From contig OZ296652.1 in the NCBI GenBank assembly GCA_965655095.1, forward strand, positions 39,866,001 to 39,930,000: a stretch of DNA of 64,000 bases, written 5' to 3'. Every line of letters begins with the position of its first letter. The stretch's first letter is position 1. The notes beneath the pieces are model-generated. The model made no database searches and was not told the origin of the DNA. It was given only the letters and a program-made list of their open reading frames with translations. The position numbers and the translations under genes were made by a program. Source of the DNA: Haplodiscus bocki. Taxonomy: Eukaryota. Of the stretch, positions 12,001 to 62,736 are shown piece by piece.

Positions 12001-15000
12001 TTTCACGGAATTCATTGACCTGTAGTCCGTTTGAATTTTTAGATGAGCATTCATTTTGATGTGATCTTTTAGGACGCGCAACTATTTTCGATTTTTTCAA
12101 GGACGAAGTTAGGTCGTCAAAATAATTGGACAATTTACAGGAAGAGAATGCATCGTTCTCTTTCATCAATGCATACAACAAACATGATTAAAATTTTTCG
12201 TCTGTTTTTTCAAAAGAAATCGATTCGTGTTACTTTCTATGGGAATTACATGGCGTCAAAGGACAAAAGGATCAGCTGAAACTGATGTAGTTTGTTAGCT
12301 TTTATGGAAATCACTATTTAAAAGGTGCCGTAGTCGTTGCAATTGTGGCTTGTCATCCACTTGAAGACGCTATGTTTTTGGATGCTGAATGAAGTCAAGG
12401 TATATGTTGCTTCAAATGGGTGTTTTCAATGGGGTTTCTGTGTTGACAGGCAACGGGTCAAAATTCCGCTCCTTAGCCCTTCCATGGTACAAGTATGTAG
12501 GTAAGTTTAAACAAGTTGCATTTATTTATCTCGGATCTTGATGGACCTATAAACTTTGATTTTACTATTTTCGGAGTTCCATCATATGGGTTAGCGAAAA
12601 TGTATAATGGCTGACGGTGTTAATTTGTAGCAAGAAGGCAACTGTGGCTGTTTTACTCAATCAAACCGTTTTAATCGCCCTATTTAATTTCACTGTTAAA
12701 ACTTGTACTGCTTCCCTAATAGTCGAGAAATCAGCAAACATGTCACGCTAGCGAGTGCGCTACGAAATTTGGGCATCAGACGGACTCTTTAATGGACAAT
12801 TTTAGCTGAAGTCAAGGGAACCAGTTCGAGCCGCGGTAGCTCATAATTTATGACTCCTGTCTTTCTGAATTGATTTGAATTGAATTGAACTCCTGGACAA
12901 AGCGAAGCCTCGATCGTTTTTTTTCGGAAATCAATTTTTTCAGAATACCAAAATTTGTTGCTGAGCGAAAGTCATCACAATGCAAATTACAAAGCAACTT
13001 TTGTGACACTTTTCTTGTTTGAGTAAATGAAGTTGAAATTATCGTTACGATGAGTTAAATTGTCAACAACATACGGTCACTAGAGAACGTTTGAAACGGG
13101 AGTTTATATTAGACAAACAATGTGACTGGTTTTGACTTAGGGGGTGTATATGGAACAGTGGAACATGCTGTCTGTCAGAAATTTTGTTCGGGAGATGCGA
13201 ACAAGTTCGAGAACAGTGTTTGGGAATATTGCATCGGAGTATTTAGCTACTGTGACAAGTCACCCATATTTAGGCATACTTTTAGTCAAATCTTTTGTGT
13301 AGGAGAAAAAGTGCCCGACTATTACAGTGGCTTTTGTTTTTTTCTTTAGGACCGTCAAAATCGACGAAATTACCGTTGCTGTTAGATGCTGCGGCAAGAC
13401 CTGGCTCTCAGAAACTTATCCCGAAACCATCCGCAGATGGATGAATTGAAGCACCTCCGCGGGTGCTAAAACTCGTTGCAATTAAAGATTGTGTCATTCC
13501 ACTGGCTGTTCATAATGTTTTTCTTCCGTAAGACGCCAAAACGAACCTTGCTGTTCATCTGTTCATGTGGTTGCTGTTTCTTTCTGGTGATTTTCTCCTC
13601 GCTTTTCAATTAATTTAAAGTATCATTGAGTGCGTTTTCGGAAAAAAATCGTTCGCCAGTGAATACACAAAGATTTCCGTACATTTTGAAAAAAAAATCA
13701 TTTTTCCAAACACAACAGAACTGTTTGGGAGTACAGGAGGGACCATACGGAGCATCATAGTAGCGGTGACAGCGCACAACCCAAAGAGATTCCGAAGTCT
13801 CCGTCTTGGGCGGCTATGTATTTCTATCGAAGCTGTAGTCAGAAAAAATGCCAGAATGCGCAGGGAAACTACAATTGAGTCACCTGACAACTTTCAGAGG
13901 GAAACGGCTTACTCTGATTCCACCCACATATCCATAATCCACACTATGGGAATGTCAGTTCCACAGAGCTAAACATCTAACATGAAGCCAGTGGCAGGGC
14001 GATATTTTCTATCAAAAAGGAAATTTTTTTATCCGTGTAGAGTCTTCTATCAGTAGAAAGCTGTCGCTTTTTTATGGAAGAAATTCAACTGGTACATCTG
14101 GAAAATTTGAGTTTAAATTTCGAGAAAAGGCAAATAATTGCCGTTTTGGCATTTTGGACCTATCAGGTTTCCAATGCAATGCGCATTACGCTTCTTTCGT
14201 TATCAAATATGCACCAACAAATAGCTGTCGATTGAGAACTTCATGAAAGAAATCAAGGTGGTAGATTTGGAGGAACTTAGGAATTTGAATATCGTGAAGA
14301 GGCATAACTATTGAGCGTTTTTTGGCATATTCGACCTATCAGGGATCCGATGCAGACAGTCTTTTCTTTATGATGTGTTAATCAAATGTGCTTCTCAATT
14401 AAGAACTGCTGTTTGAGGTCTTGATTGAAGTAATACAGCCAGTAGTTTAAGCGAAATGTGAGTTTGAACTTTTCGAAAAATCAATTCTAAATCCTATTTT
14501 AGTACTTGCCGCCCTGCAGGATTCCAATGCAAGAAACTGAATCGATGATTTTCCATTTAAATAATTTCCTGAAACTTGTTTGTCAGTTGGGACGTCGTCG
14601 ATAATACAAATCCAACTGGTTATTTTAGAAGAAAATGAGTTTGCATAAGCAGCAGAATCGTAATTAGTTGCACCCTTTTGCGTAATTGGATCAACAAGTT
14701 GTCGATGCAAGTAACGACGTCTTGAAATTTCTGTACTGTAGAGGCCAGAGTGAAAACAAGAATTTGAAAAATATAAGTTGTTGTTCAGGAAAAAAACTCA
14801 GAACTTTGATATACAAATCGCTTGCTATCGTTAATTTTATTAGTTTTTCAGGTAGGGTAGAATGTGAGAGCAAGTTTGCTAAAAGATGGGGCTGTTTTGC
14901 TTAAACTTAAGACTCCTTCATCAAAACTTTCGAAAAACTTTTGTGAAAGAGACTTGCGATGAAATCATAAAAATATCGGCTCATCGAGGATTCGAACCTG

Positions 15001-24348: not shown

Positions 24349-27300
24349 AAATCCATTCCCTTCTTGTCCCTCGTGAAAAATATTGAAAGATTCATTTCGG
24401 GCTGCGATAGTTAATGCTTCTAGAATTACTGCGAACCACTCTCAGATTTTTCTTTTCCTGGTGTGACCTTTTCAAAATTTAACCGTCCTGATACCGGGGC
24501 GTGGGTGTTTCCAATGCAGAACATGAAAAGCGATTCTGCAGGAAGCTGTGATCATATTCATCAACAATTCTAGAGCTTCTTTCAGTTCATCGCCTCTCGC
24601 AATTTTGGTGCTTCTTCCTCCGAGGGGTCCAAGAGCGTCGAACCTGCGGAGTACAGACAGTTCGATCTTGTATACAACCGCGTGATGAAAACAGAGCGAG
24701 AGAGAATTGAACGACCATCTTCCAGCGTTTCTAAACTGGGCCAACAACTCCACTCTAAAGTTGATACTGCCTACTCCAGGGTTCGTTTCCGCTTATTTGT
24801 ATATTTTTGCCGTCCAAAAAAAGTTTAAAATAAATGGGGTTATCTCATGTAAATGAAGAAAGTGATAAATAATACTAATGCTTGGGCTTTTAGATATGCT
24901 TCAATGAAACTTCAGTCTGTGTATTAAGACGGCTAACGAATGTTTTCAGTCAGCGCTTTAAGTAGTATTCTACTAAAAGCACGACAATTACAGTACTTAT
25001 TTTTAGGACTTCGGAAAATTTTGATTTCGCGAGGTACTTATAATGTAACTCGGTTTTCGTGTTTTTTGATGCTTCTTTGTACAACATTGTGCGACCTCGT
25101 CTGAAAGATGGAATTTTGTGCGACTTTGAAAATTTTTGAATTTTTTGTCAAAGCGCAGCAGAGCGGCGTGGGAGTACAGGAGTGACCAAACGGAGCATCA
25201 TAGTTGCGGCGAAAGCGCGTAAAAAAATCCGTTTTTTTGGAAATCCCATCCTTTTTGGCGGCTATAAGTATTTTACGAAATACTTATGTTTTTCAGTTTT
25301 TCTACACTTTTTTGTTCGGCATTTTTCGACTTCATCCAGTACAAAGATTTTCGTGTGATGTTGTAAAAAATGTTTGAAACTTTTTTCAAGACACAATTAA
25401 GCTGCGTGGGAGTACAGGATGGACCCTATGAACCATCTTAGTGTTGATGAGAGCGCGCAATTCTAAAAATTGATATTTTTTCTCACTCGCCAAGTGAATA
25501 TAGTAGCCCTATCCACCAGCATAAATTCGGCAACACAGCGCAAACTCAAATAAAAACGAAAAGTCAAATTCCTCTGAAGGTATTCATTCTTAGGAGCACT
25601 AGTAGCGGGAATGACCGACGAAGTTGTCCTTAGTTTGAACTGTTCAATTTCAATACGGAGTGTTATCCGATCCGAGCAAAGGTCTAGCCTTTCCCAAGCA
25701 AGAATATTGAATATCAAAATTATTCCAACTTTGGTACAGGGGTTAGGTAGGATCTGTTAAGTGGGCCGCGAAGTTAAATTGGGAAGTATTTTCACCTTTT
25801 ATTGAACTGTTTTATCCGGGCAAAGATGCGGCCATTCGGTGGTATTGAAAAAGAAGGGAATTTTAAAAATATCGAAAAACATTAACTTTATTCTAGTGTC
25901 TCAACGACATTTCGCGACCTCGTCCGATATAAGGACTTTCGAGCAACATTTGATATTTTTTCTGTAGAAAACACAGCAAAACTGGGTAGGAGTACAGGGG
26001 GACCCTCCGGACCATCGTAGTAGCGTTGAGAGCGCACAAATCTACAAAACTTTGTCATTTTCCCAGTCAACGTACTAATAAAGGTTAAACCCACTGTTGT
26101 TATCCCAGCATTTTCCCATGTCCTCTCCGCCTTGGGTGGCTATGTTTCTCTTTAGAACATCGGAAATTTTTAATTTTACGAGCTATATATATTATTGCTC
26201 AGTTTTTGTTCTTCTTGCGCTTCTTGTTACGACATCTGCGAACTGGTCCGAAATATGCAATTTTGTGCGACTTTGAGAATTTTTGAATTTTGCTTTCAAA
26301 ACGCAGCAAAGCTGCGTGGGAGTGTAGGAGTGACCATATTGAGCATCATAGTAGCGGCGATAGCGCGCAATAAAGAAAATTCAATTTGTTTGAAGTCCTG
26401 TTTGCCTTCGGCTGCCATATTATGAAATTCATCACTCACTTTACGTAGATTTGACTGACTTCCTTCTTTTTGTTTTGATAATTGCTGAGATTTAATGAAT
26501 AGTGTCCTTCAGCCCTATGTTTTAGCACCCTTATTGTGCTCAATTATTTAATGTCTTCCGTTGGATCAAGTTCCCAATCCCCCCTGTACTTAGTTTATAA
26601 TCACCCCAAATATGCGCAGCAAGCAGCTCAACCAATCAAATTAAAGCAGTTTGCACACACGCGCATCTTCAAGCCAGTTACACTTAGACACAAATAGAAG
26701 CAACCTGAGTTTAAACGAGGTCTCGTTGTTTATTTTTTTGGTTTTCAGAGCCGCAAAGCTGCTCATCAGTTGCTTAATTTTCTAATCTTTTTCTCGGGAG
26801 TAGAAGCATTGTTGGGGGGAATGATTCAATATGTTAATGTAAGTGAACCAATTTAGTCCTGTAATGATGGGTGAAACCGTCAATGAACGAGACACCCGTG
26901 ATGCGAGAAGACCTCAATGCTTTTGTGAACCAATCACGGAACACCTTGATTGGCTGAATTTGTCTGCTAGAGCTGATCATTACAGTAAAGTGCATGTAAA
27001 CATTTTGATGAATATACGTACATTTGATGAATTCGTAATTTGCTACCACTTTCTACGATGGATTCTTAAATGACATGAGACCAGTACTCGAAATTGAAAT
27101 GAGTCTCACTAAACATAAAAAACTAAATCTCGTACCGGCAGAATGTTTTGATTGGCTGAAATTTACGTGCATACTTTTCAATAACTTTGGTATAATATAG
27201 TCAGCAGATGTCTTTACGAACAACATATTGTTACTAATGGCGGCAGGTAAGTATCTCCGAACGTATCAAAGTCACACAAAACTGCCGCCGATTGGTCGGA

Positions 27301-28524: not shown

Positions 28525-29072
28525 CATGTATTTTCCTTCACTCAAATCAAGTTTGAATTAAATACTTACACTATTTGATTGCATTTATCACGGTTCTGAT
28601 AAATATTGACAAAATAGCCATGTTACTGTTACATAAGGTCACAGAAACTGTGAATATTAAACGTATCTACAAATGTAGTGAATATTACGGCCGGAACATT
28701 GTTTCCATTCAGAATCAGGGGGTTTGGTTATTCTAGTTGAACTGTAGATAATTATTTTGAAGGTTGGTTCTGAAAAGAATGTTAGTCCATTCGGCGGTCT
28801 TGATTATTAAGTTTGTGTTACTTGGTTGAAGTTTGATTCAAATAGTCTATATGCTCATTTATTGCATAGTGTAGCTATTTCATCATTCAAAGCAAGGTAT
28901 TCATTCATCTCTTATGCTCGGCAGATTTGTCAAAAGTAATTGCTCAAAGTTTTTCATCTCACTAATATTATCGTTGGTGCCAGCATTTTTCATTGTCATC
29001 TAATGGATTACTGCTGATAACAATAAACTATTGTGTTTTGATTGTCCAGCTGTAGTTGTAGTTATTCCCATC

Positions 29073-30446
29073 ATGACCAAAGTATCCTTGGCAATTTTTT
29101 GCCTATTGCGGTTATATTTGGTTGTAGCAAAGCCTCTTCCCGTCGGTTCAGAATGCAATAATTGCAAACATTTATCTGCAATTGCAATTGGAAAGTTTTC
29201 ACTTGGTGTTGATTGCGATTATTCCCATTGTTTTTCTGAAAGCGGTCGGTTCTTGAATTCTCACACCTCAAATGAAGCTCTGGAAGAACATGTTTTTGAG
29301 TTGAGTAGGAAATTTCCGCTGATAACACAGGTGCAGACAATCGGCCGATCTGTTCAGGGTCGTCCGTTGCTGGTTCTCATAATCTCTGATAACCCGAAAT
29401 CTCATGAATTGAAAGAACCCGAGTTCAAATACGTCGCGAACATGCATGGAGATGAAATTGTTGGTCGCGAACTTCTCATAAATTTGGCCCATTGGCTTCT
29501 TCACAACTACGAAAGCAACGAAACGGCGACAGAATTGATTGAATCAACCAGAATTCATCTTTTGTTTAGTATGAATCCTGACGGATACGCTGGAGATTCA
29601 AATGGCAAAATACCTCAACGCGGAAACGCCAACGGTGTCGATCTTAACAGAAATTTCCCAAATCTGAATAAAATAGCGTTCAAAAACTTAGAACTGGGCA
29701 TTTGTGAGTCGGAAAACTTGGATAAAAAATATGCAAACCTTTCGACTGATGTTGCCAAAGCTGAGCTTGAAACTCGTGCAATCATTAATTGGTTAGAAGA
29801 AGTGCCTTTTGTGCTAAGTGCCAATCTACATGGAGGAACGTTTGTCGCTAATTATCCCTATGACTCCAAAAGTGGCCAGAACCACTCCAAAACACCTGAT
29901 GATGACCTGTTCAAGTCGCTCGCAATGACATACTCCAAGTCACACGCAGTTATGGCAGCTGCCACCAATTCGGTCCCTTGGTTTTTCCAGGATGGAATAA
30001 CAAATGGAGCTTCTTGGTACGAAGTTGAAGGGGGTATGCAAGATTATAATTACGATGCATCAAATTGTTATGAGATAACTTTGGAACTTAGTCTGTATAA
30101 GAACCCAAATGCCAGTATGCTCTGGATGTACTGGCATCAGAACAAAGATGCGCTTCTTCACTTCATGAAAAAAGTTCACATCGGCATGAAAGGAGTTGTG
30201 ATGAATGTAGATGATGAAATTGTCGCCGATGTTCAAGTAATAGCCCGGCATTCGGGACTCAAACATGACCCAATCACGTGCCACTCAATATCGTCTACGG
30301 TTTATGGAGATTTTTTTCGGTTGCTGCTTCCAGGCACTTATGACATCGAGTTTCGACATCCCGATTACAAAATTGAATTGCTTTCAGCTGTCGAGGTGGA
30401 AGATGACGTCACTGATGTTGGCACAATTTTACTTCGCTCCTCTTGA
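29073..30446 (+). CDS. Secreted M14B metallocarboxypeptidase (carboxypeptidase E/D/M-like), 457 aa, uninterrupted ORF
   Basis: Signal peptide MTKVSLAIFCLLRLYLVVA; zinc ligands in NMHGDE and SANLHGG; substrate-binding DLNRNFP; GITNGASWY; catalytic Glu in EITLELS; C-terminal transthyretin-like domain (GMKGVV...GDFFRLLLPGTY). The first ATG is at 29073; the ORF-track start at 29031 is TTG. Confidence 0.95.
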   Translation: MTKVSLAIFCLLRLYLVVAKPLPVGSECNNCKHLSAIAIGKFSLGVDCDYSHCFSESGRFLNSHTSNEALEEHVFELSRKFPLITQVQTIGRSVQGRPLLVLIISDNPKSHELKEPEFKYVANMHGDEIVGRELLINLAHWLLHNYESNETATELIESTRIHLLFSMNPDGYAGDSNGKIPQRGNANGVDLNRNFPNLNKIAFKNLELGICESENLDKKYANLSTDVAKAELETRAIINWLEEVPFVLSANLHGGTFVANYPYDSKSGQNHSKTPDDDLFKSLAMTYSKSHAVMAAATNSVPWFFQDGITNGASWYEVEGGMQDYNYDASNCYEITLELSLYKNPNASMLWMYWHQNKDALLHFMKKVHIGMKGVVMNVDDEIVADVQVIARHSGLKHDPITCHSISSTVYGDFFRLLLPGTYDIEFRHPDYKIELLSAVEVEDDVTDVGTILLRSS

Positions 30447-31557: not shown

Positions 31558-32185
31558 TATAGCGACCCTGCTTTGGGTGCTATGATTTTTGTAAGTTCTT
31601 TTTGCTACGAAAGAAAATTTGATACTTGCAAGAAATAAAATAAATAGTTAGGTTAAATAATTAAAACATTAAAAGTTAGGATTATTAAAACAAAGCATTT
31701 ACAGAAGTGAATAAACATAAAGCACTAACATTATTGGTTTTCTTCGTGATGTAGAGAGGGGAGAAGAGGACAAATTTAAGATTATTTTTCTTTAAGAGGA
31801 GAGAGAGAAGTTAAATTTTGCTGTATAGAAGAGCTGCTGTTTTCTGCACAAAAAGATTGTTACGATTGTTAAAAGAGAGACGAAGGAAAAGTGTGTGATG
31901 GAAAAACACTCACCAGATGGCGGCTATTACGAAGATGTCTACTTCACTAATCGTAGCTGTTTACGAGTGATGACTGATATACTTCATCACTCGTTTTCTA
32001 CAACGAACTGCTACGAGGAACGAATTATTAACGAATTACTCTGATTGTGGTAACGAGAGGTTGACTAATAATGGCCTGGAGAGCCTGGAGAAAGTGAAGT
32101 AAAAATTGAGTACATATTTTACAGAGGTCACGTACTAAAAGCAAAAAAATGAAAAATATTAAACAGTTTTGTTCAGTTTGTTATA
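31558..32185 (-). repeat. 3' LTR
   Basis: Direct repeat of 45371-45998, preceded on the element strand by the PPT. Confidence 0.95.
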
Positions 32186-32229: not shown

Positions 32230-33196
32230 CTACTTCCAATATTCGCTGGTGTCGATGTCATTCATGGGGCAACAGCGGCTGCATTGGTGTCGTTTTTGAT
32301 TTCGTACAGCTCTCATGCCGCAGCAATCAAGGATGGCGCGGGTGCGGTTGGAGGAAAGTATGCTGTAGAGGGTTGTTAAAAGGGTTGGTACCTCGGAGGG
32401 GCATTCAGGGTGCTGGTCGGGGTGTGTTAATCGTTCAAGTTGCAGGTATTGTCGGCGAATTGTTTGCGGGTGTGCTTGAGGGCCTAACCCAAAGAAGTGG
32501 TAAGTCTTCAGCGGTAAGGCGGTCAGAAGTTTCAGTGAAGCTGGACAGAATTTCGAAGAGCATGCTGAGAGCGCGGTCGTTGTCTTTAGAGATTTTGCTT
32601 GTTTTCTGCATGTCCTCCAGGCGGGACTGTGTGTTGCGAAGATCGCGCCGCAAGGTTTCATTTTCAAGAAGCAATTGATTGACTCTGGTTGTCATATGTG
32701 GTAGACGTTCTTGTTGTCGATCCAATAGATTAGAACGCTCTTTTAATTGCTCTTCAAGACGCTCAAGTTCGTCTGCTTCGCGAAGAAGAGCAGCAAATTC
32801 TCGGTGCTCAACCGAGTCAGTGATCGAACCAACAGTGGATGTTAAAGGCGGGGTTGTAATAGTACTGGCGTCCATGGCATCTGGTAGAACCGGGGGCGGA
32901 ACGGGGGAACACAAGTTACAATCTTGAATGGGATCAGTATTAACAGTCAACTCAGTTACATGTTTGGGTGGGGCCCAAAGCGCTGAAAAGCCAACAAAGA
33001 ATGAGCGGCGACGGCTGTCGAATGCAGGGTGAATCATTACACTATTCGTTGAAGGTACAACGCGAACAACATGGTACGGAGTTGGGTCCACAATATACAC
33101 GGTGTCACCAGGAGCCACATCCGTAAATTGACCGTTAGCAGTGAGAGCTCGGGATCGGGAATGAGACCTGAAACAAAAATGCTTGAAAAGGTTCAT
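32230..33196 (-). pseudogene. Accessory ORF: beta-rich N-terminus, coiled coil, DnaJ J-domain (HPD); one frameshift near 32503
   Basis: ORF 32435-33196 reaches ...LTAED. Skipping one nucleotide (GAC t TAC) continues YHFFGLGPQAHPQTIRRQYLQLERLTHPDQHP..LTTLYSILSSNRTRAILDCCG, matching the J-domain consensus DYY.LG....A....IK.AY..L....HPD....AY.VLSD...R..YD..G. Confidence 0.8.
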
Positions 33197-33556: not shown

Positions 33557-35950
33557 TTACGGTGGTCGAGCATTAGGTGTGGAGTGCGCGTGAGCAACAT
33601 CGGGGTAAAGGAGGGGTTGTTCTGCTGATGCGTTGCTAGTGGGACAAGTGACAACTTTGCGGCGTGCGAGTACTTCTTTAGCAAGTTCGGATAACGCTGA
33701 AAACTCGTCTTCGGTTAAGTAGAGAAACGCAGTTGTTGCTTGCGTATCATCTGCGGCAAGCTCGTTAACAATATGTAAAAATCGTCCGTGTGTACCGCGG
33801 AAAAAGCGTTGCGGATGAGTGATGAACTGCTTCCATTGACGTCTGAACAAAGTGAAACTGATACTAAAAGAGATCAAAGAAATGGTCATGGACAAAAGAG
33901 CTAAACACAAGGCGCTTTTTGTCTGCATATATCTTTCAAGCGATTTACTCGTGGCTGGTGGAGTGGAGGCGTAGTAGTGAGAAATTGGCTCAGCGACTTC
34001 TTTGAGTTTATCAAAATCCATAGTGTGAACTTCAGGTAATTCTGCTATTTCCATGCGGACACTAGTTAAGACAGACTTGCGTACCTCGCTGTGAGAATAG
34101 ATGTTGAACTCTGCACTCGGTGGTGGTAAGGACTCAAAGACCTTTTGCAACGATGGGGTTAGTTGCACTTTGGCAACAAATGGCTCCGGACGAGTTTCAC
34201 AGTAATCCATGTCCGGGTTCAAAACAAGATCTCCATGGTTGAGCGTCAGTTTCGACGAGCAACCTGGGCGAATGACACATGCTTGACAATCAATAGTGGA
34301 CATTCTAGTGCCATGAGAATTGGTATCGTTCATCATCGGAAGGTGGCGTTGTCGTGAGATGACATGATAAAGACCATCTGCGAGGTAGAAAGCTTGCGGG
34401 GCATCAGGTAACAGAACTGATTCAACATGACAATTTCGAAGAGCAGGAACACTAAAGTTATAAAACAAAGACGTTAAGCACAACAAGGTCACATCTGTGG
34501 TAGTGGAAAATCCTGTTAGGCAAAGTTTGATTCTGTTCGTGCCGGAACACTGTTGTAACGTGGCGACACCCAGTTCGGCGTACTGGGATTTATCAGTCGC
34601 GATAGCTAAATAGTCATGACGGAACTGATACAAAGAAGCGGTAGAACCATCCTCATTGGGCTGATACAATGGAATTACACGGAGAATATTGAATGTGGCA
34701 GACTTTGAATTCATGGGTATTCCTTGTACAACAGAGATACCAGAAGCTAAGATGGAAACTTGTAACACAATTTGAACTTCGTAGTATGTTGCTTTGTAGC
34801 CGACTTGTATGGCTGGTGTTAGCTTTGTACCACGATGAACTTCTTCCATCGTGAGTTCATGAACAATCTCGGCTAGACGATTGGGTGTTAGGAAATTAGG
34901 AGTGACATAGCCGGACGATAATGAAGAAACTGCTGAATAAAGATTAGTTCTGTAAGAAACGAAAGCTGATCGGTAGGCTTTAAGGTGAGTGTAGACAAGA
35001 TCCAAATATGAAGTGTAATTTTCGACTTTAAAAACAAGGTTACTAAAGTGTTTAGTATGGACTACACAATGGTCGAAAAAGTTCAAAGAACGAGTGAGTT
35101 GGTCTATAGCTCTAGAGGTAGCGGTAAAACGGTTTTCAACAACGTCTCTAATTGCCTTGACATTTTCTTGTGTCTTTGAAATCTCCGAGCCAAGGAAGAA
35201 AAATTTTCTGTCGTTGGCTGTTTGAACCGTTTTCATTGTTTCGGCGAAAGAATTCCGTTGGGCCATGAGGGTTGAAATGTCCTTTCTCAAATCTTTATTA
35301 TCACTGCACAGTTTGAAGGTAGAGAGAGCACTGCATGCTGCATCTTTTAAAGGGTTACCAAGAATTAGGCCGGCTGCTCCAGATGCAGCCATCAATGCGG
35401 GAATAAGACGACGTTGCCGAGAATGTCCCGTTTGGCCTTTGTCTTCGTTCGCTTTCGTGGGCGGCGGTGCGAAAGACTCGGCAACTCGAAGGAGTTCAAG
35501 GTGATCATCTGCAATGGCTTTTTGCTCTTTGAAGAGAAGATTCACTCGATATTCGATTGACTCAGCTAAACCTGCCAACTTTGCTAACATATCATTGGTG
35601 TTGACGACGCAATACATGGGTGTGGAATAATATTTGCCTGTGGTAGGATCGATATTATCTTAGTATTTCTGACCGGTATTGGAAAGGTTTTGACGCGCCT
35701 CTAAAACGATCTGGCGCAGGCGGAGGGCTCCAGCTGGATCAATTGCTGGTGGCTGTGGAAATGGTGAAAAAAGTCTAACTTTACTCTCACTTTCAGATGT
35801 GACGGCTTGATAAGTGTAGATAAACACTGCGCCTCGTTGGAAAACCGAGTCTTCTTTCTCGGAGCCCACACTTGTTTGGAAAGTAACTTCAGAACTGATC
35901 ATAAGGAGCCAGGATTTCAGGAAGATAATGGAAATTAGCCAAGGACACAT
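33557..35950 (-). pseudogene. env: env: class I F-type fusion glycoprotein, 797 codons with one in-frame TAA (35660-35662)
   Basis: The signal-peptide ORF 35660-35950 is in frame with the 686-aa ORF 33557-35617. Furin site RQRR, fusion peptide LIPALMAASGAAGLILG, heptad repeats, Cys-rich region, TM helix ALCLALLSMTISLISFSISFTLF and a cytoplasmic tail. Confidence 0.88.
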
Positions 35951-36305
35951 TTCGGGGCGTTGATACTAAACAGAGTTACAAATGGAGGAAGAAAGAAGAA
36001 TACTACATGGAGACAAGTGAGATAAATGACTAAAAAAATGAAGATTACTTTTTCCTATCATGCTTTGAATTATGGGAGCTATTTTTCTTTTTACTTTGAC
36101 TTGTATGCTCTGACTTCAAGTTGCTGGGCAAGTGCTTCTCTAATTGATGAAGCGGTTGTGCATGACGTTGAAGTAATATAGTCGAACGTAGTTGACGCGG
36201 ACATACGGTCTGGTTGGCAGACGCTTCAGGGGTAGCTGAACGTTCTAAATTTTCTGCGGCGTTAGAGATGAAACTTTCAATGGAAAGGGAGGAGAAAGGT
36301 GAGTC

Positions 36306-37997
36306 CAGGGTGGCCACTTGGTCCCTTTTAAGGGACCTGGTCCCTTTTGGTCCCTTTTTTGTCCCTCAACTTTCAAAAGTCCCTTTTTTAAGGGACCTAG
36401 GGTTGATCAATTTAGACACATTTAGAACAGATCATTAATGTGTAGTAGCTTGATAATAACTTTTTTGTATACCTAAACATCAACTGCGGAATTTCTTGTA
36501 TATTGTTGCCAAATAGCCTATTTTCAGATGTTTCAGACCTATTTGAAACAGGTCTGAAACATTTGTTTTTCAGATGGGTGTATGTAAGGTTACTGAGACG
36601 CTTCTGTCGAAATTCCGATGGACAGTGAGGATACCGGGTGACGAACATCATGTCGAATGCAGATATGACGGCAGGATTCTGTCTGTTAAGGAGGGATGTG
36701 GATCTCTCGAGCAACATCAAACCTACGTCGTCCATGTTACTTCTGAAGCAGTACACTCAGGCGAGTATTAAAATACTTTAATTAGACCTTTGCGTTCATT
36801 AATGCAATATTTTTTACGAAATCAAGTTACAATCGAGATAGCAAATGCCAGAGCCACCACTGTTGCAACCAGCGTGCGAAAGGCCACAATTCTCCATGTT
36901 TTAAACTTGGTCCTCAATAAGCATTCATTCAGATCCAGTGACAGTGCCACCAGGAAACGAGCCATCTACGCCAAGATGTTCCCCGATTCCGCAACAACAG
37001 TGTCCCAAGATAATCGATTTTCCGGGATGCGCTTCTCACCAGTTGAACTTAATCCAAAAGTCTGAAGTGCGCGCATTCGACACCTTCGCTCAAATTGTCA
37101 AGATTATTGAGCTGTTTTCAAGTCTCATTCTTCAAATTATCCGCAACTGGGGTACTGGATGAACTGTTGTCATTTCGGACTGATCTGAGTGAAGAGCAAC
37201 GTACTAAGACACTTAAGTGCTTGTACGAGGATGGCAGCTGCAGCACATTTCATCAATTGACTGAGCTGGTTGAGTCCTGCCTACTGGTTTCTACTCACAA
37301 CATGATTGTCGAATCCGGATTTTCACTGATGAAGACAACTGAGACAAGTTACCAAAGCAATATGACCACAGAAACATATGATGCGTTGAGGACCATACAA
37401 GATTTCTGGGATGTTGAAGACTTCGAAGAAATCGAAATTACGAGTGAATTGGAATCATCAGTAGCTTCGGCCAGTGGACGGTATCGCGAGGTTACGAAAG
37501 AGAAGCAAGTTTTAAATTCCAGAAAGAGAACCTACGCGGAAGAGTTGCGGACCGAAGTTCAGGTATTTAAACGAAAGTCAACACTGACGGTTCAGCGGGA
37601 AATCACAGCGACCAACAATGAGCTTGAGCAAGCTCGGAAGCTGGTATCTGACCTTGAAAGCCGCAAAGCGATGTTAACGAAAGAACGCGACGCACCATCG
37701 ACCTGGTTTCTCTGAGTGCCCAAGGCCTCTGTTATAATGTCTGTTATAATGTATTCTGTTTAAATGGACCAAAGTTACTGGTCACAATCTCTTGCGTTTA
37801 AATAGAATTCTGAGAAATCAGTTCTTAAGTTAACATTTCTTTTTTTTTCTAGTAGTGCCTCTTACAATTCAAGTATAAAAGAGGGTCCCTTAAACGTCCC
37901 TTTTTCTATTTACGGGTTAATTTCAGGTCCCTTATTGGTCCCTTTTTATGAGGCTTCGCAAGGTCCCTTTTTCTTCGAAATAAATGTGGCCACCCTG
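36306..37997 (+). mobile_element. Internally deleted hAT DNA transposon nested in the pol 3' tail
   Basis: Perfect 12-bp TIRs CAGGGTGGCCAC, perfect 8-bp TSD GGTGAGTC (36298-36305, 37998-38005), subterminal GGTCCCT/AGGGACC repeats. Transposase remnants: HSFRSSD..KMFPDS (36790-37065) and dimerisation-domain-like HNMIVESGFSLMK (37095-37715). Confidence 0.9.
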
Positions 37998-39720
37998 GGT
38001 GAGTCTGGTGGTACGGACAGGTTCTTGGAGGAACTTGAAAGATCAAAAGTGTCATTAATTACAGTTCGAGATTGTGCTTGCGATGGAACTTGAGAAAAAT
38101 CTTGAGGTGGGCCACAAAGGGTGGTTCTGCTGGGAACCGAGGATGCTCGTTTTGTACTTGCAAGAGAAGAACTTTGGATGGGAGTTTCGGGGACAAAAAC
38201 TGCAGAAAATAGGGTTGGAGAGGCACTTCGGGGTCGAGGGCTTGGTGGAATTTGGTGGGACAGAGTTTGAGAACAGTTTTCAATGTTCGTGAGTAGCGAA
38301 GTGCGATTTTTGTGGCGGTTTGCTTTCCGGTGCCCTGGGGAGACTTGGTTCACGCCGTGGAAGCTGTAGTTCTGGACGTTGAACGAAGGGCTTTAAACGG
38401 TCATAATGAACGATGGTCTCTTTTTGGTTCACTGTATTTTTGATTTTATATGTTACGTCGTTAAGACACTGTACAATTGTGTATGGACCTTTCCACGGGG
38501 GTGAAAGTTTGGGACTCAGTCCTGTAGAAATTACAGAGCTATGTAACCAAACATTGTCACCTGGCTTGTATCGGGGGCCATGCAATTTAGAATTATACAA
38601 AGCGTTGCGTCGCAGTTGAGCAGCTTGACGATGGAGACGTGCTACTTCGTGAGCTCGTTGCATGTCAACACGTTTTTGTTGAACAAACTGATGCACGTCG
38701 GTTTTGTTGGGTTGTTCTGGCGAAGGGTACTGAATATCAATGGGAAGCTTAATTTCTTCGCCAAAAACAAGAAACTGCGGTGTATAACCTGTCGATTCAT
38801 GCACTGAAGTCCGAAATGCCATCATCACATATGGAAGTTGCTGAGTCCAATTGCTTAGGAAATCATCAACAGATTTGACCAACATGTTTAGTAAAGTTCT
38901 GTTCATTCGTTCGATTACAGCATTTGATTGTGGATGGAAAGATGTGGTTCGCGTTTTATCAATTTGAAGGGACTGCATGAGACTTTGAAAAAGTTTAGAC
39001 TCGAAGTTTCGGCCTTGGTCTGTGTGAATGCTCACGGGAACGCCAAAACGACTAATCCAGTGCTCAAGTAATGCGGTAGCAGTCATTTCAGCTGTCTGAT
39101 CTGGCAATGTGACTGCTTCATACCACTTTGTGAAGTGATCACCAAATAATGCTATAGAGGAATTACCATTTGAGACTGGAAGTGGTACCAGGAAGTCAAT
39201 ACCAATGTGGGCAAAAGGGAAACTGGGAGGCCAATTGACAAGGCTGTGTCTATGTTTTTGCTTGGGGCTGTTACGTTGCTGACAAACAAGACAACTTGAG
39301 ACAAACACACCGACATCTTTCTTATGTCCTGGCCAATAGAATCTAGCTCTAAGCTTTTCTAGAGTTTTTGTTACTCCTAGGTGAGCAGCTGTTGTGGAAC
39401 TGTGAATTGATTTTAGGATTTTGGGTCGCAATGTTGTTGGAATGACTTGCTGTAAATGACTTTGGCCTGTGCTCGAATCCTCAAAACTTCGGCACAGGAT
39501 ATCATTTACGACTTTGAGGGAGTCGAAATTTTTCCAGAGAACCCAAACGTCTTTTGACTGGCCTTAAAGGACTGAGCGATGGGGTTGTTTCTCGTTTTTA
39601 ACGCAATAAAGAACGGTGCTAAGGCTCTGACCGTCTTCTTGTGCTTGTTGCATGTCATTCTTTGTTCCTTTTTCTTTTCGAGTCCCGCTAGGACTGGGAA
39701 TTTGCTGTTGCGGTTGCGTC

Positions 39721-40133
39721 AAAACCGTAACTTTGATGGGCGATTTGTGGAAGCCATCCGTGATGATTCCTTTTACTTTCAACCAATTTAGCTTGTCGAG
39801 TCCTGTCGACAGTCGTGGTATGCTTATCTTTTCAATATTGTGTTTCTGCGCGTGTTGCAACATGGCTTCCAATGCTGCACGTAGGGAACTGTACGTCGGT
39901 TTGTTCCAAAATCTGGGCTTGACTATCAAGTGATAAATAAATCTATTCGGAGAAATTTGCTGTGCATAAATTTTTTCTTTCGATGCCTTCGACCCAAACT
40001 CGGGGTACGTGGTTGGGAACGCTTCCCGAACCTGCTTGGCAATACCTGTTGCAAGCTTGAAATCTGATGGAATGCTATGCGCTATTGAGTCTGTGGAATC
40101 AAATAGATTTCCACTCACTTCTACTAATTCGAT
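39721..40133 (-). other. TARG1/OARD1-like (Poa1p-like) macrodomain embedded in Pol between RNase H and integrase
   Basis: SGNLF..DSIAHSIPSDFKLATGIAKQ..RFIYHLIVK..NKPTYSSLRAALEAM..ISIPRLSTGLDKLNWLKV aligns by eye with human OARD1 (KGDLF..DSLAHCISEDCRMGAGIA..YIYYLITK..HKPTYENLQKSLEAM..LSMPRIGCGLDRLQW). Confidence 0.9.
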
Positions 40134-42574
40134 TTTCTTTGATTTTTCTGTTTGGCAGACTATCTGCACGAAGTCAAAACTTTGTTGACTTCTCTCTTCT
40201 TCAACATCTCGAGTATAGGGATGCTGTTCTTGCAATTTTGGCATCATGTGCCCTTTTCGCTGGGTAACTGGTTCTTTTTCCTCGTTCGTGCGAGGACGGT
40301 TTGGCCATCTGTGTCACTTATTTCATTGTTATTTTGCGTTGGTTGTTTTGCTTCTGCACCGCGCGCAGGTGCATTCACCAGGTCCGTGGTAGCGTCTTGG
40401 TTGGGAATCCTAGACATAGAATCCGCGTGTCCAATACTTTTTCCAGTGCGATGGACAATTTCATGTTCAAAAGCTGCTAGTTTTTCGAGCCAACGTGCCG
40501 TTAAACCATCGGGGTCTTTGAAATTATGAAGCCACTGCAAAGTTCTGTGATCAGTGACAATTTGAAATTTTCTTCCTAACAAGTAGTGCTTGAAATGTCT
40601 GGTGAAATTCACAATGGCCAAAAGTTCACGTTTCGATTTGAGCGAGAACGGCAGCCATTGCATGCTGGCTAGCATCAGTATATAATATGAAAGGTTCTCT
40701 CATGCTCGGGAAGGCCAAGATTGGGGCGGAAGTGAGTCTGGGCTTCAGAACTTCAAATGCTTCCCGGGCTTCGGAATGCCAAAGGTAATCCTTTGATTTC
40801 TCGGTCAGTTGATGCAGGGGACGGGCTATTTTCGCAAAGTCTTGCACATATCTTCTATAGTATGAACAGAGGCCTAAAAAGCTTTTGACTTCGGTAGCGT
40901 TCTTTGGTACCGGGTATCTGTTGACAGTGGAGGTTTTATCAGGATCGGCTTGGATGCCTTCACGGCTCACAATATGGCCCAAAAAGGGAACTTTTTGCCG
41001 GAAAAACTCACATTTGGTCGGATTGATTTTGAGATTGGCGTCTTTGAACCATTGAAAAACTTCGCGGAGGCGCTCTAGGTGTTCTTCGATTGTGCGAGAG
41101 AAAATGATGCAATCATCCAAATAAGGAATTGTAAACTTCCAAGTTAGGCCTACAAGTACCTTTTCCATGAGACTCTGAAAAGTGTTTGGACTGCCGGTGA
41201 GGCCCATTGGCATGCGCAGCCATTTGAATGATCCGAATGGTGTACTGAACGCTGTATAGTCCTGACTTGCTTCTTCCATGGGGAGTTGATAAAATCCCCA
41301 AGACATGTCATTGGTAGAGAAGTAACAACTACCTTCCAAAGTGTCAAAGATTTCCTCGATGGATGGTATCGGCCAACAAGACCTAATGGTCTGCTTGTTC
41401 AACTGCCGATCGTCAATGACAAGTCTCAGTTTACCATTATTCTTTGGAACTAACATAGCGGGTGCACTGTAAGGGCTATGGCACGACTCAATGAGTTCAT
41501 GCTCAAGGAAATTGTCCAACTTTTCCTGAAGGTCTGTTTTGAAATGCATTGGCATCCGGCGATTGGGAAGTTTCACCGGAGTTGAACCTGGGTAAACTTG
41601 AAATCTATGTTGTACGAGATCACATTTTCCGATGTCCCATTCATCTTGCGAGAAAACAGCCGAAAAGTCACGGAGCAGCTGCGCAAATTTGGCATGGGAA
41701 CTTTCGTTCATGACTGGCTTCGCTTGGTGGAGGATGCTTTGGTGGTGGAGATCATACTTGGTGATTGCGGTGTGCTTCTGCTTTGACTGAATCGCTACAT
41801 TGTTCTGGGCGAACGTGTCTTGCAGGATGGTGAATGTTCCTAGTGTTGAGCCTTTATAAATCATTCGATCTTCTCCGGGATTAATAATACGTGCTGGGAT
41901 GGCATCCTCTTGAAGTTCGGAAAGAGTGTTGAAAGCCAAGACATTTTGTTTGTCGCAGAAAGATTGTGAAGGTTCAAAGATTCCTGCTTTTGTCAAGAAG
42001 GTGTGATCATCAAGGTCAATCTTACCTAGAATAATCGCTCCGTGACCGGAGGGTATGAAGGATATTTCTCTGGCAACTAGTCTCATGACTGGGTAGTGCC
42101 AGGACTGAACCGGTGCTGTTCGATGGAAAAGGTCTGCGGAGGTACCTCGGTTCAAACGCAACTTCATTTCAGAAAACATAGGATCACACTTGTGTGTCTC
42201 AAGAAAGTCAATGCCTAACAAACACTCAGCTTCAGAAGCTTCAAGGACAAGAAAAGTATGTCGAAAAGTCATTGATGCTATTTTCATTTCAACTGTAACT
42301 TCACCTTTTACTCTAATCTCGCCTTGGTTGGCGGCTAGGAGTCGTCTAGAACATGGTTTCAGAGATAACTGTATCTTTGGAGGAAGACGAACAAACACTT
42401 CGGGGCTCAAACAAGAAACACTGGCGCCTGTGTCACAAACGGCATCTAACGCAATTTCACAGACCGTAACTCGTACGAAAACACTTTTGTCATCCACCAC
42501 TGAGTTCAAACATTCCGTCTTTTGGAGGCTTTTAGAGTTCCCTGCGCAGTTGCGTCGTTGATACGCTGGTGCTT

Positions 42575-43653
42575 TCAGTTTAAATGTTGGCGTCGGGCAC
42601 GGCATTCGTGCCTTAAGTGACCAATTTTGCCACAAGTGAAACATGCTTTGCACTCACGGCTGGAATCGTTGTTTCGGCCACAATGTTTGCATTTTTCGTC
42701 ATCACTACGCTGCGAACTGGAACTTCGGTCTCGTTTGTTGTTTTTGGAGTTATCTGAGAAGCGAACTTTCGAGTTATTCCTCTGATTGTTGCTGTTGCGG
42801 GCGGTGTTCCGCTAGTTGGGCTGATTAGGTTTTTTAAAGTTGGAAAAGTTGTTATTTCGTCTCGGGCCTGGTGAGGGAGACCGATATCGGTTACTATCTC
42901 GACTGTCTGAGCGATCTCTTTGATTGTTCTGGGAAGCATTTCTGTCGGTACGTGAAGACTTAGCCACTGCGTCTTGAATTTCTGTGCGGAGACTACGAAT
43001 TAACTCATTAAAAGTTTCGAGAGGGCTCTCAGTGCTGATATTGTTAACACCAGAATTTTGTAATTTTAAACCGTCAATTTCAAGAAAAGAGTGAGTTTCC
43101 ACTGCTGCTTGCAGTGCGGCGTCAGCATCTGCGGGTTTCGCTTTGCGAACCTCCCACCGAACAGTTGGGTTGGACAAACCAGCAAAAGAAGTGGTCAGAA
43201 GGATTTCGTTGCGGACAGCCTCAACAGGATATGCATTGCGGGCTAAATCTCGCAACTCTCGAAAAAAAGCGGGGATGGTTTGTCCTGGTTGTTGACGGAG
43301 AGCTTTAACTTTAGCTTTGAGTACATCTTGATTAGGAGCTACTGGGCGCGAAAAGCGTGAAAAAGGCGATTCATGTTAGTCTGCTGGGCTCGAGTCAGGG
43401 AGCGATAGAAACTCAAAGCGTCACCACTGAGGCGGGCAGAAAAGAATTGAGGACGCAAGTCACCTGATGGGTGGTTTTCCCAATCAGAAAGAGACGCAAC
43501 GGAATTGAACTGAGTAGCAAAGTCTTCAAAATCAGTGGTGCCATCAAACGGGGCGGGCAAAAGACAAGAGTAATTAGGCATGACTGTGGCACCAGAGGAC
43601 ATACTGGAAGATTGTTGTGATGCCACGTTTGGGGCTTGATCGTCGGGGTCCAT
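42575..43653 (-). pseudogene. gag: gag (capsid plus two zinc knuckles), disrupted
   Basis: PAPFDGTTDFEDFATQF..RLSGDALSFY..ALRQQPGQTIPAFFRELRDLARNAYP; knuckles CKHCGRNNDSSREC and CFTCGKIGHLRHEC. 1-nt deletion near 43340, TAG at 42812, natural TGA at 42575-42577. Confidence 0.9.
42578..42584 (-). promoter_or_regulatory. -1 ribosomal frameshift heptamer U UUA AAC at the gag-pol junction
   Basis: gag ends CAT TTA AAC TGA; the -1 frame reads TTT AAA CTG AAA GCA (pol frame FKLKAP); a GCGT...ACGC stem-loop follows. Confidence 0.8.
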
Positions 43654-43988
43654 AGAAAACAGAAACTAGAAAAAAAATCAAATAGACGTTCGACACATGG
43701 ACATATAATCGAGGATTTCGTTCAATTCATGGGCCTGGTAAAAACAAGTGAAAGGAGTGACACACTGATATTCAATCAAACATGAATAAAGGTAGTTCCA
43801 AGTTGGGGTTTATGGAGGCACAGAAATCAAATCAACATGTGAATGATTATTAGAGGAAGCGAAAGTTGATTATCGGAACCATCGGTACGACAGCGGATCT
43901 CAGTAACGAGTACGGGACATGGACAGCAAGGAGGAATCCATGAAAAAGAAAACGGAACAACAGTAGTTCCAACCATGAAACAAAGAGA

Positions 43989-44627
43989 CTAAGAGTCAAC
44001 AGACCAAAAAAGGTAAAGAACGAAAGAGCAGTTTGAAAACAACAAACAAAGAATACACAAACAAATGAGAAGAATCAAGAGCCGGTCAATAGAGTGTAAG
44101 CGAGCCAAAGTAGGAGAAATAGTGTCAGGAGGGAAATGCATGGCGCTTTCGTAGCTGGGGAGAGGGGTAGCTTGAGCCTGTTCCGGAGGATTTCCAGAGA
44201 CATTAGAAGTGGAGGAATGTACGGTGGAAGAAGAAGACGTGGCAACAGTGGCACTGGTCGAAGGCAAAGCGGATAAGCGCGGAGTTGAGGCGACTGGTTG
44301 GGCCGTTAAGATGTCAGGGTTGTTGTGGACATACAATTCCAAGTAAAGGAGCCAAAGATTTCCGAGGAGGTAGAAGGTGAGCGCATCGTGAACAGAAGAA
44401 TTATTAGTTTCAGTCAAATAAGACCAAGTGGAAGTGCGTGAAAGATGTGACTGGTAGTGCTGATTGAGAAGGACACTGTGAAGAAGTTGCAATGAAGAAG
44501 GGACCGGGCGACCCTAACCAAGAATACAAGAGTATGGATTTTTAGCTCGTGCACACTGACAAAAATAACAGGGGAAGGCAATGACAAAAGGGCCAGAACT
44601 CGTGTGAACAGTGTGGTAAACGGACAT
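43989..44627 (-). pseudogene. ORF0: accessory membrane protein upstream of gag (one in-frame TAG)
   Basis: ATG at 44627 (MSVYHTVHTSSGPFVIAFPCYFCQCARAKNPYSCILG*) is in frame with ORF 43989-44492 across a TAG at 44514-44516. The product has a Ser/Thr-rich region, an LPSY motif and a C-terminal hydrophobic Cys-rich helix. Confidence 0.5.
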
Positions 44628-45353
44628 AGAAACGATTTAATAAGTTAATTTATTTTGGTAGAGAAGCGACGAGAAAGGTTGAAAAACACGGCAGAACGCA
44701 ACGTGACGAACGGACGGCCAGGAAAGAACGTAACGGAAGTAACGGCGACAAAACAAAAAAGGCGGCGGAACGACGAGGACGAAATCGGAGCGTCGTGTAA
44801 AGTGAAAATCCTAAAGGTGGGGGTAGCAAGGCACTGCCGCGACTCCTACACCAAGCAATCTCAGTGTTGAACACCGGAGGGACGCCTAACTTAGTCTAGT
44901 TGGTCACCCATACGGAAGAAATTCACTGGACTGAAATGCTAGATCAAGTGAAAGCAGTTACTCATCAAACGTGTTGATGGACAAACAATAGTATTCTCAG
45001 TGAAATTGCAGGCCGTGACCAACTGATTGAAAAAAGTGCCTTGTCATGGGAACCATACTCCAAGAAGATAAAAATGAAAAAAAAAAAACGAACGCACGGA
45101 TCGGCGCGGGTTAGCAAAAACGGATGGAAGCGCGAAAAGAAAAACAAAAGGTAGTTCGATAAGCGAACTGTTGAAATGAAATCACTTTAAATAGCAGACA
45201 TCGAAAAAACAAAAAGGTGAAAAAAAAATTGAAAACTGCAGCGCTGATGCTGTTTAAGAAAAAATGCTAACGAAAACCAGGCAGAAAAATGTGCTAGAGG
45301 CCAGAGAAAAATTTAGAGGATGCCTGTGGGTGACATTCAAAATGCTAAAAAAA

Positions 45354-56409: not shown

Positions 56410-56658
56410 TGTTGCGGTCGAAAAATGAAAAACTTGAGAAATTGGAAATTTTTCATTATTGGTTGAGTTAGATGTTTATAAACCTCAAAAATTTCTTACC
56501 AGTTGCTCAACATATGATATCATCGATAAAGCGCATTATAGCGTCTTTATGAACCTTAAAACAACAAAACAGTGAATTCCGCGCCTGACCCTACCCTGAC
56601 CTTTACAGTGTCGTATTTCAAGGTCACATAATGCAATTGACCTGATTTTTCGGTTTGC
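56410..56658 (+). repeat. Bel/Pao 5' LTR (3'-truncated)
   Basis: Homology with 62449-62700 ends at CGGTTTGC and runs straight into gag-like ORF 56655-57473. Confidence 0.85.
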
Positions 56659-62448: not shown

Positions 62449-62736
62449 TGTTGCGGTCGAAGACTGAAAAACTTGAGAAATTGGAATTTTTTCATTTGAG
62501 TTAGATGGTAGATGTTTTTAAACCTCAAAAATGCCATACCAGTTGCTCAACAAATTATATCGTGGATAAAACGCATTATTGCGTCTGTATGAAACTTAAA
62601 ACAGAACAAAACAGTGAATTCCACGCCTGACCGTTCCCTGATCTTTAAAGTGTCGTATTTCAAGGTCACCTGATGCTATTGACCTGATTTTGCGGTTTGC
62701 GCGTTCTATGTGCACCAATGTACCTCTATGCCAACA
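62449..62736 (+). repeat. Bel/Pao 3' LTR
   Basis: TGTTG...CCAACA termini, preceded by purine-rich AAAGACAGGGCAGGCGA. Confidence 0.85.

Follow-up and report, generated by a model that had tools for sequence, protein, structure and literature searches.

A J-domain accessory gene behind env in a lineage of Ty3/Gypsy elements of Haplodiscus bocki

J domains act through their HPD motif to trigger ATP hydrolysis by Hsp70 on a client held nearby, and viral J domains occur in polyomaviruses, baculoviruses, giant viruses, and phages. In class C (type III) J-domain proteins, the J domain lies away from the N-terminus and is joined to client-specific modules; the protein described here has a similar J layout but is encoded by a mobile element. 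Few protein-based counter-defences are known from animal retrotransposons. The available part of PMC8894888 describes how polyomavirus T antigens use their J domain and Hsc70 to disrupt Rb-E2F, with virion assembly also affected. T antigen serves as our model by analogy, since in both cases a virus-encoded or element-encoded HPD J domain would engage Hsc70 beside a separate binding module, but it belongs to a DNA virus and its J domain is N-terminal and of the HPDKGG type (PMC8894888, in part), whereas that of the element is C-terminal, after a barrel and a coiled coil, and HPDKGG is found in 0 of 18 element cluster representatives. The baculovirus protein BJDP/Ac51 is similar in size and also combines DnaJ and coiled-coil parts (PMC12172431, in part), and BJDP models of 288 and 302 aa appear among the Foldseek viral matches to our predicted structure (ranks 24 and 44). 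Its order is DnaJ-RRM-coiled coil, however, while the element has barrel, coiled coil, and J domain, and the Foldseek match is limited to the J region (83-94 columns); the accessible text of PMC12172431 does not mention HPD, Hsp70, or Hsc70.

Among retroelements, the errantiviruses covered in the accessible part of PMC13524379 resemble the element in having an LTR-gag-pol-env layout, a PR-RT-RH-IN order, an F-type env, and many near-identical copies. The present element differs in a J-domain gene that follows env as its fourth gene, in a Macro domain within the bridge, and in small ORFs ahead of gag. The 'ancient errantiviruses' of the same source are defined by their place in the POL tree and by an RNase H plus a 'mini' domain in the bridge (PMC13524379, in part); here a Macro domain lies between RNase H and integrase. 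The available main text contains no mention of DnaJ, J-domain, macro, accessory, or chaperone, and in its seven supplementary text files there are no occurrences of DnaJ or J-domain, the 'macro' rows shown being species names. Additional genes in LTR elements, typically expressed through spliced messages, are known as the ORF3 types of bdelloid elements (PMC5408684, in part), and the orf a/b/c genes of WDSV are likewise accessory ORFs made from spliced transcripts, with one ORF lying before gag and with an rv-cyclin that resembles a host protein (PMC3185748, in part). The cargoes in those systems are a GDSL esterase, a DEDDy exonuclease, coiled-coil or TM proteins, and a cyclin, rather than a J domain, and neither DnaJ nor chaperone is mentioned in the accessible part of PMC5408684. 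The initial annotation of the locus stated that no standard Gypsy or errantivirus gene of this kind was known, and our literature searches, whose coverage stopped short of subscription papers and repeat databases, likewise returned no J-domain gene of a retroelement. A J-domain accessory gene of env-bearing retrotransposons is apparently undescribed so far.

The window is the whole stretch of DNA analysed, 64,000 nucleotides from a 1.5-Gb assembly (G000), and its minus strand carries a decayed copy of an env-bearing Ty3/Gypsy element with a Macro domain in pol. The J gene lies, as first annotated, inside this LTR-bounded element and on its coding strand, 3' of env. The parts of the element are listed below.

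31558..32185, minus strand: 3' LTR, 628 bp, TATA termini; 4-bp target duplication immediately outside
32230..33167, minus strand: J-gene coding exon, 312 codons in open siblings; frame-broken in the window copy near 32500-32510
32233..32325, minus strand: Cys-containing tail, (C/H)CG...CxxC; possibly a metal site
32326..32505, minus strand: J domain, HPD at 32416-32424; identified by Pfam, PDB profile search, and fold comparison
32531..32812, minus strand: predicted long helix or coiled coil, placed approximately in the window from sibling-model residues 119-212
32963..33166, minus strand: predicted SH3-like beta barrel of KOW/Tudor type at the N-terminus, placed approximately from sibling-model residues 1-66
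33168..33185, minus strand: splice-acceptor-like site, pyrimidine tract and AG; phase relative to the J frame constant in most subfamilies
33557..35965, minus strand: env, F-type fusion glycoprotein by a Baculo_F match in a sibling subfamily; a stop near 35660 interrupts the window copy
36045..42653, minus strand: pol, fragmented; protease, RT, RNase H, Macro (~39771-39956), integrase; insertion at 36306-37997
42613..43665, minus strand: gag, fragmented; Retrotrans_gag and zinc knuckle found in a sibling
43680..44640, minus strand: three small leader ORFs 5' of gag, common to two subfamilies; approximate, mapped from L089
45371..45998, minus strand: 5' LTR, pairs with 31558..32185

The two LTRs, of 628 bp each, are 96.5% identical and are flanked by the target duplication; both end in TATA at each side, not in TG...CA. 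Pfam matches run in the order protease, RT, RNase H, Macro, integrase, followed by a long ORF resembling a fusion protein and then by the J gene. With its LTR pair and target duplication, gag, and a pol in PR-RT-RH-IN order, the element, known here from sequence alone, groups with env-carrying Ty3/Gypsy elements, and an F-type env is suggested by a Baculo_F match (E 1.8e-7, above the cut-off) in one of four env sequences scanned, that of L064, which is 62% identical to the env of the window. The window's own env gave no Pfam match over the cut-off, and a phmmer comparison of a sibling env with the PDB returned zero matches. The Macro domain (Pfam E 3.6e-7, over the cut-off) is present in pol of every subfamily examined of the J-bearing lineage, and a literature search for a Macro domain in Ty3 pol gave nothing. 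The leader ORFs (also in L089:1479-2451, L090, and L092) are 32-44% identical between subfamilies A and B and gave zero Pfam matches; one of them ends in a hydrophobic C-terminal stretch, and the leader of subfamily D is shorter and unrelated to those of A and B. The window copy is old, with gag, pol, and env all fragmented and with a 1.7-kb insertion in pol that has terminal inverted repeats and an 8-bp target duplication and is presumably hAT-like; the insertion holds a 220-codon frame without a Pfam match.

Within the J gene, the downstream frame matches Pfam DnaJ over model positions 2-63 (E 3.3e-7, 30.7 bits against a curated cut-off of 27.8) and contains the HPD motif, while the beta-rich start, Pro-rich linker, and coiled coil noted at first are all present in the upstream frame; the two frames, described as joined near ~32503, do meet there. 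The Cys-rich tail was also correctly recognized, but the CSRCC by which it was characterized is the form of the window's subfamily only. The family-wide tail motif is (C/H)CG...CxxC, both halves of which are retained in most clusters, and it is a possible zinc site. The break between the frames had been put down either to decay of this copy or to a programmed switch between short and J-containing products, and sibling copies decide between these. From 40 scored DNA matches among 174 candidates in G000, 30 loci were fetched, including that of the window. In 15 of the 29 siblings the whole gene is open, with an exon-encoded part of 312 aa; 12 others form one tandem array with a common break of their own near the N-terminus, different from the window's; and the remaining two (L019 and L020) align over 1-298 in one frame and have internal stops. 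The window's break is absent from all 29, 27 of which read through its junction in one frame (by pattern). What breaks the frame in the window is decay private to that copy and not a switch. Proteins 99-100% identical to the query are encoded at sixteen loci, which indicates that the window's subfamily moved recently. The tandem array (G000:C10:69.55-69.59 Mb; L003, L005-L015, L083, and L084) has about 14 units of 2.73 kb, each consisting of an LTR, part of the leader, and the J exon, with gag, pol, and env missing; a 267-aa frame with the coiled coil and J domain is kept in 11 of the 12 fetched units, and the array may have arisen by amplification of a cassette or may serve as a source of small RNAs.

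The 253-aa ORF of the initial annotation does not provide the start of the gene, as its Met precedes a conserved splice-acceptor-like site (intron end 33168) and only 2 of the 29 siblings have an in-frame Met at that position. The pyrimidine tract and AG ending at 33168 do not change phase against the J frame between subfamilies whose proteins are at least 70% divergent, and the acceptor is in phase in eight of ten further, newly fetched J ORFs, our script having missed it in the other two. Several subfamilies have no Met ahead of the first domain, and where a Met is present, similarity continues upstream of it. The conserved acceptor phase, the absent Met, and the similarity upstream of Met make a spliced first exon likely, and these sequence features lead us to regard it as probable that the J gene is made from a spliced subgenomic RNA with a separate first exon. 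The leaders of four copies and the sequence upstream of the acceptor in 15 loci were searched for a splice donor, and none is conserved there, either alone or together with an upstream ATG. Four contig data sets aligned to the window behave like genomic DNA, and no splice joint was among the joints listed for them, which speaks neither for nor against splicing.

As an accessory gene, the J gene extends across a whole lineage of env-bearing Ty3/Gypsy elements; the window shows a dead copy. When 150 of 666 candidates from a DnaJ search of G000 were scored, about 17 of the top matches read as host genes and many others fell into multi-copy groups. The 10-kb stretches upstream of the multi-copy matches mostly have the order RT-RH-Macro-IN-env-J, the stretches that depart from it being host genes, copies with deletions or rearrangements, one stretch taken in the wrong orientation, and a second lineage; for L075, L076, and L095, neither pol nor env was found upstream of J. 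Conversely, when loci were picked with the env of an outside record as query to avoid selecting by J, a search that covers lineages A and B only, the J gene was found within 1.5 kb after env in 29 of the 30 best loci, L139 being the sole one without a J match in that interval. The 94 distinct full-span sequences form 20 clusters at 65% identity, with 22-65% identity among clusters and only 22-35% over the whole protein between lineages. HPD is kept in 83 of the 94 sequences and in 18 of the 20 clusters; it is absent from 11 sequences, and both HPD-less clusters are singletons. Of the 42 aligned members, 33 match DnaJ at E<=0.01. For natural copies compared in pairs by the Nei-Gojobori method, dN/dS is 0.146, 0.049, and 0.078 in subfamily A and 0.26, 0.175, and 0.125 in subfamily B, and 0-0.18 for the J domain alone in the same six within-subfamily pairs; purifying selection is significant in all five pairs tested (Fisher p<=2e-9). 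The signs proposed at the outset for a functional family, namely presence of the segment beyond one copy (29 sibling loci, 20 clusters), HPD conservation, and dN/dS below 1 (0.05-0.26), were thus all found. Three rearranged copies may be recorded here: in P0108, a gag N-terminus is fused in frame to a subfamily D J protein; in L126, the env-J ends form an inverted pair; and L094 has partial J repeats in tandem.

In a tree that left out the second Gypsy lineage, 20 element J domains stand on one side of a 100/99 branch and 14 host J domains on the other. The proposal that the family carries a captured co-chaperone gene stands as to the gene itself, which is family-wide, under purifying selection, and on one well-supported branch apart from the host J domains; as to a donor, three host J domains are tied at 47.6-47.9 bits and none stands out. 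Integrase, env, and J trees of 14 loci agree in the deep splits between lineages and differ in depth at the tips. The matching deep splits point to one acquisition followed by co-inheritance, and the sequences suggest that the J gene was acquired once, before the subfamilies radiated.

The env-J gene order, judged from contig sequence, extends beyond the window's assembly. When 1.84 billion representatives were searched with a profile, 54 proteins scored E<=1e-30, and almost all of them have the barrel-coiled coil-J architecture. For two of these relatives, P0137 and P0138, the best matches in G000 are 41-42% and 56% identical (the searches give lower bounds). P0222 had no match in G000 at E<=1e-8, and a word search found no relative besides P0222 itself; local tblastn against the G000 J proteins gave E 1e-10 to 1e-18. 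It is encoded by L128, a 3.5-kb outside contig in which an env ORF is directly followed by the J ORF. The env ORF is 48-57% and the J ORF 21-30% identical to those of G000, and at the DNA level L128 matches G000 at 66-69% identity within part of env and nowhere else; the phase of its acceptor is ambiguous. No cluster member examined bears a protein name, and no named protein or Atlas cluster matched the combination of barrel, coiled coil, J domain, and Cys tail; the ESM Atlas had no usable match to the complete protein, and for the barrel it gave only clusters without a name, at <=0.90.

An AlphaFold2 model of a sibling protein, built from a 42-sequence alignment (mean pLDDT 79; a single-sequence fold with pLDDT 53 was set aside), has a beta domain at residues 1-66, a low-confidence linker at 69-117, a helix of about 95 residues at 119-212, four J helices at 219-283, and then an ordered tail, with pLDDT 84-93 across residues 201-300. 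The structural expectation of the initial annotation is borne out in that a four-helix J fold is predicted with HPD in the loop that joins helices II and III. A profile search of the PDB matched solved J domains (best E 7e-14), and the J part superposes on Sis1, DNAJB1, ERdj5, and other J domains with Z 8.1-8.7 and rmsd down to 1.2 A, although no Foldseek E-value for the model reached 0.001. Two features are new relative to that annotation, the splice acceptor and an SH3-like fold at the N-terminus. The N-terminal domain superposes on Spt5 KOW domains (Z 7.0-7.1, rmsd 2.0-2.9 A over 55-62 residues) and on the Tudor domain of PHF1 (Z 6.7); the KOW, Tudor, and SH3 folds score almost equally, at 9-18% identity, and the model is consistent with an SH3-like barrel of KOW/Tudor type, a Z of about 7 being common among small folds. 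Comparison of the barrel with the C-terminal domain of the element's own integrase gave an hhalign probability of 5% and a score of 17.4 (shuffled maximum 14.0). The C-terminal position of the J domain is not the layout of class A/B Hsp40 proteins, which have an N-terminal J domain, a G/F region, and client-binding domains, and from sequence and model the protein would be a class C-type J-domain adaptor.

The best overall reading of these sequence and model data is that the J gene encodes an adaptor for recruiting host Hsc70 to a target, to which we assign a probability of about 0.7. The J gene would be transcribed as a spliced subgenomic RNA; the SH3-like barrel would pick the client; the linker and coiled coil would provide reach and probably mediate oligomerisation; and the J domain would call in cytosolic Hsc70, with HPD triggering ATP hydrolysis. 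Hsc70 would in this way be aimed at one complex that it pulls apart or remodels, much as polyomavirus T antigen acts on Rb-E2F. Given its sequence and predicted fold, the J domain with its HPD very likely binds cytosolic Hsc70 and sets off ATP hydrolysis there, and G000 has a cytosolic Hsc70 copy ending in EEVD. The identity of the client is a more tentative matter: a host factor, for example a silencing or restriction complex, has close to an even chance and is more likely than either Gag or Env of the element or the LTR transcription complex. A selected, lineage-wide J gene would directly show a retroelement bringing its own handle on Hsp70, and the extra gene suggests that such elements steer the main folding machine of the host. 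The gene is small, soluble, and modular, HPD is a built-in control, and a natural allele series exists on near-identical backbones, which makes it easy to ask, using isolated proteins, what host complex a retroelement must dismantle.

The most serious alternative, though an unlikely one, is that the protein is a co-chaperone of the element's own particle, recruiting Hsc70 to Gag, Pol, or the tail of Env to help in folding, assembly, or uncoating. It would account for the tight linkage of J to env in 29 of 30 env-picked loci and for co-inheritance of J with pol and env at deep splits, and it has viral parallels in the effect of T-antigen/Hsc70 binding on virion assembly (PMC8894888, in part) and in baculovirus Ac51, which with its DnaJ and coiled-coil parts serves nucleocapsid egress (PMC12172431, in part). 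A Gag or Env partner should track these proteins, however, and J alleles do not. In the pairs L064/L067, L074/L119, L118/L122, and L120/L123, RT is 94-98%, integrase 92-99%, and env 94-99% identical, while J identity is 53, 63, 67, and 81%, respectively, so that in the first three pairs a J identity of no more than 53-67% goes with 92-99% identity in pol and env of the backbone. In four pairs DNA identity falls at the acceptor from 88-100% to 46-77%, whereas control pairs hold 97-100%. Synonymous sites are saturated between the L064 and L067 J alleles, and in that pair, the one in which gag was checked, the gag start and leader ORFs are 90-100% identical. Saturated synonymous sites together with the drop at the acceptor indicate exchange among old J cassettes, not merely faster change. 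Such exchange between near-identical backbones is expected of a host-facing gene and fits a Gag or Env partner poorly, and as read from these sequences it favours a host target over the element's own capsid. It could also come from LTR linkage or small-RNA escape, not from a protein arms race.

WDSV's orf a and b genes lie 3' in the viral genome. The J gene has a position like that of such 3' accessory genes of complex retroviruses, and it might encode an LTR-specific transactivator whose KOW-like barrel binds nucleic acid or the elongation complex while Hsc70 remodels LTR repressors, a reading we find rather improbable. The top structural matches of the barrel are indeed Spt5 KOW domains, but the near-tie with Tudor and SH3 folds at such low identity weakens the argument, and while the J cassette and downstream sequence diverge together in four pairs, L064 and L065 keep 91-96% DNA identity in J with downstream sequence at 46-63%.

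A further and still less probable alternative is a decoy or pseudo-J protein, whose retained fold and HPD would tie up Hsp70 or a different partner but not activate it productively. In canonical J proteins the basic face of helix II contacts Hsp70. The 14 residues before HPD contain 1-4 Lys/Arg in the 18 HPD-bearing element clusters, just one in five of them, versus 4-5 in 15 of 16 full-length host J domains and two in the remaining one, and the Hsp70-contacting surface thus appears eroded in several subfamilies. Against a decoy, HPD is retained in 18 of 20 clusters, and subfamilies A and B and the outside P0265 keep 3-4 basic residues.

A neutral passenger left by a one-off capture of a host DnaJ exon would explain the decay of the window copy and nothing more, and this very improbable reading is refuted by purifying selection, the 20 clusters, the outside record L128, and the branch separating element from host J domains. 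Weakest of all, a programmed frameshift is suggested by two overlapping frames in the window copy only, a copy also broken in gag, pol, and env and carrying an insertion, and it is ruled out by 29 siblings without the break, 15 of them fully open, and by the absence of a slippery heptamer of the scanned pattern.

Returning to the Hsc70 adaptor, a broader and speculative extension, which we consider doubtful as a whole, would make these 'complex' Ty3/Gypsy elements carriers of a host-manipulation kit, comprising the Pol Macro domain, three leader proteins, and a swappable Hsc70-targeting adaptor directed against a host silencing factor, with Hsp70 recruitment as a repeated retroelement counter-defence. 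The barrel would then read, in the manner of a Tudor domain, a methylated protein of the Piwi pathway or of chromatin, and the J domain would have Hsc70 dismantle that client; an arms race between host and element would keep the J allele families; and the coiled-coil and J genes of a second Gypsy lineage would be a repetition of the same counter-defence.

That second, distant lineage of the same genome (L086, L093, L099, L101, and L102) has decayed ORFs that combine a coiled coil with a J domain, and the elements in L086 and L093 each contain two of them. Its RT is 20-35% identical to that of the main lineage, it has no Macro or env match, and its J domains cluster away from those of the main lineage (98/86). 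Elsewhere in the window, an uninterrupted 480-codon zinc carboxypeptidase gene of the host (29004-30446, plus strand; Peptidase_M14 E 1e-69) sits 1.1 kb from the 3' LTR of the element. A decayed Bel/Pao-type element occupies ~56410-62703 on the plus strand, with a Peptidase_A17 match at 60333-60950 and flanking 87% direct repeats (56410-56661 and 62449-62703), and a dispersed repeat of ~95 bp is present in four copies of 65-80% identity at 13686-13800, 25129-25481, and 26277-26391.
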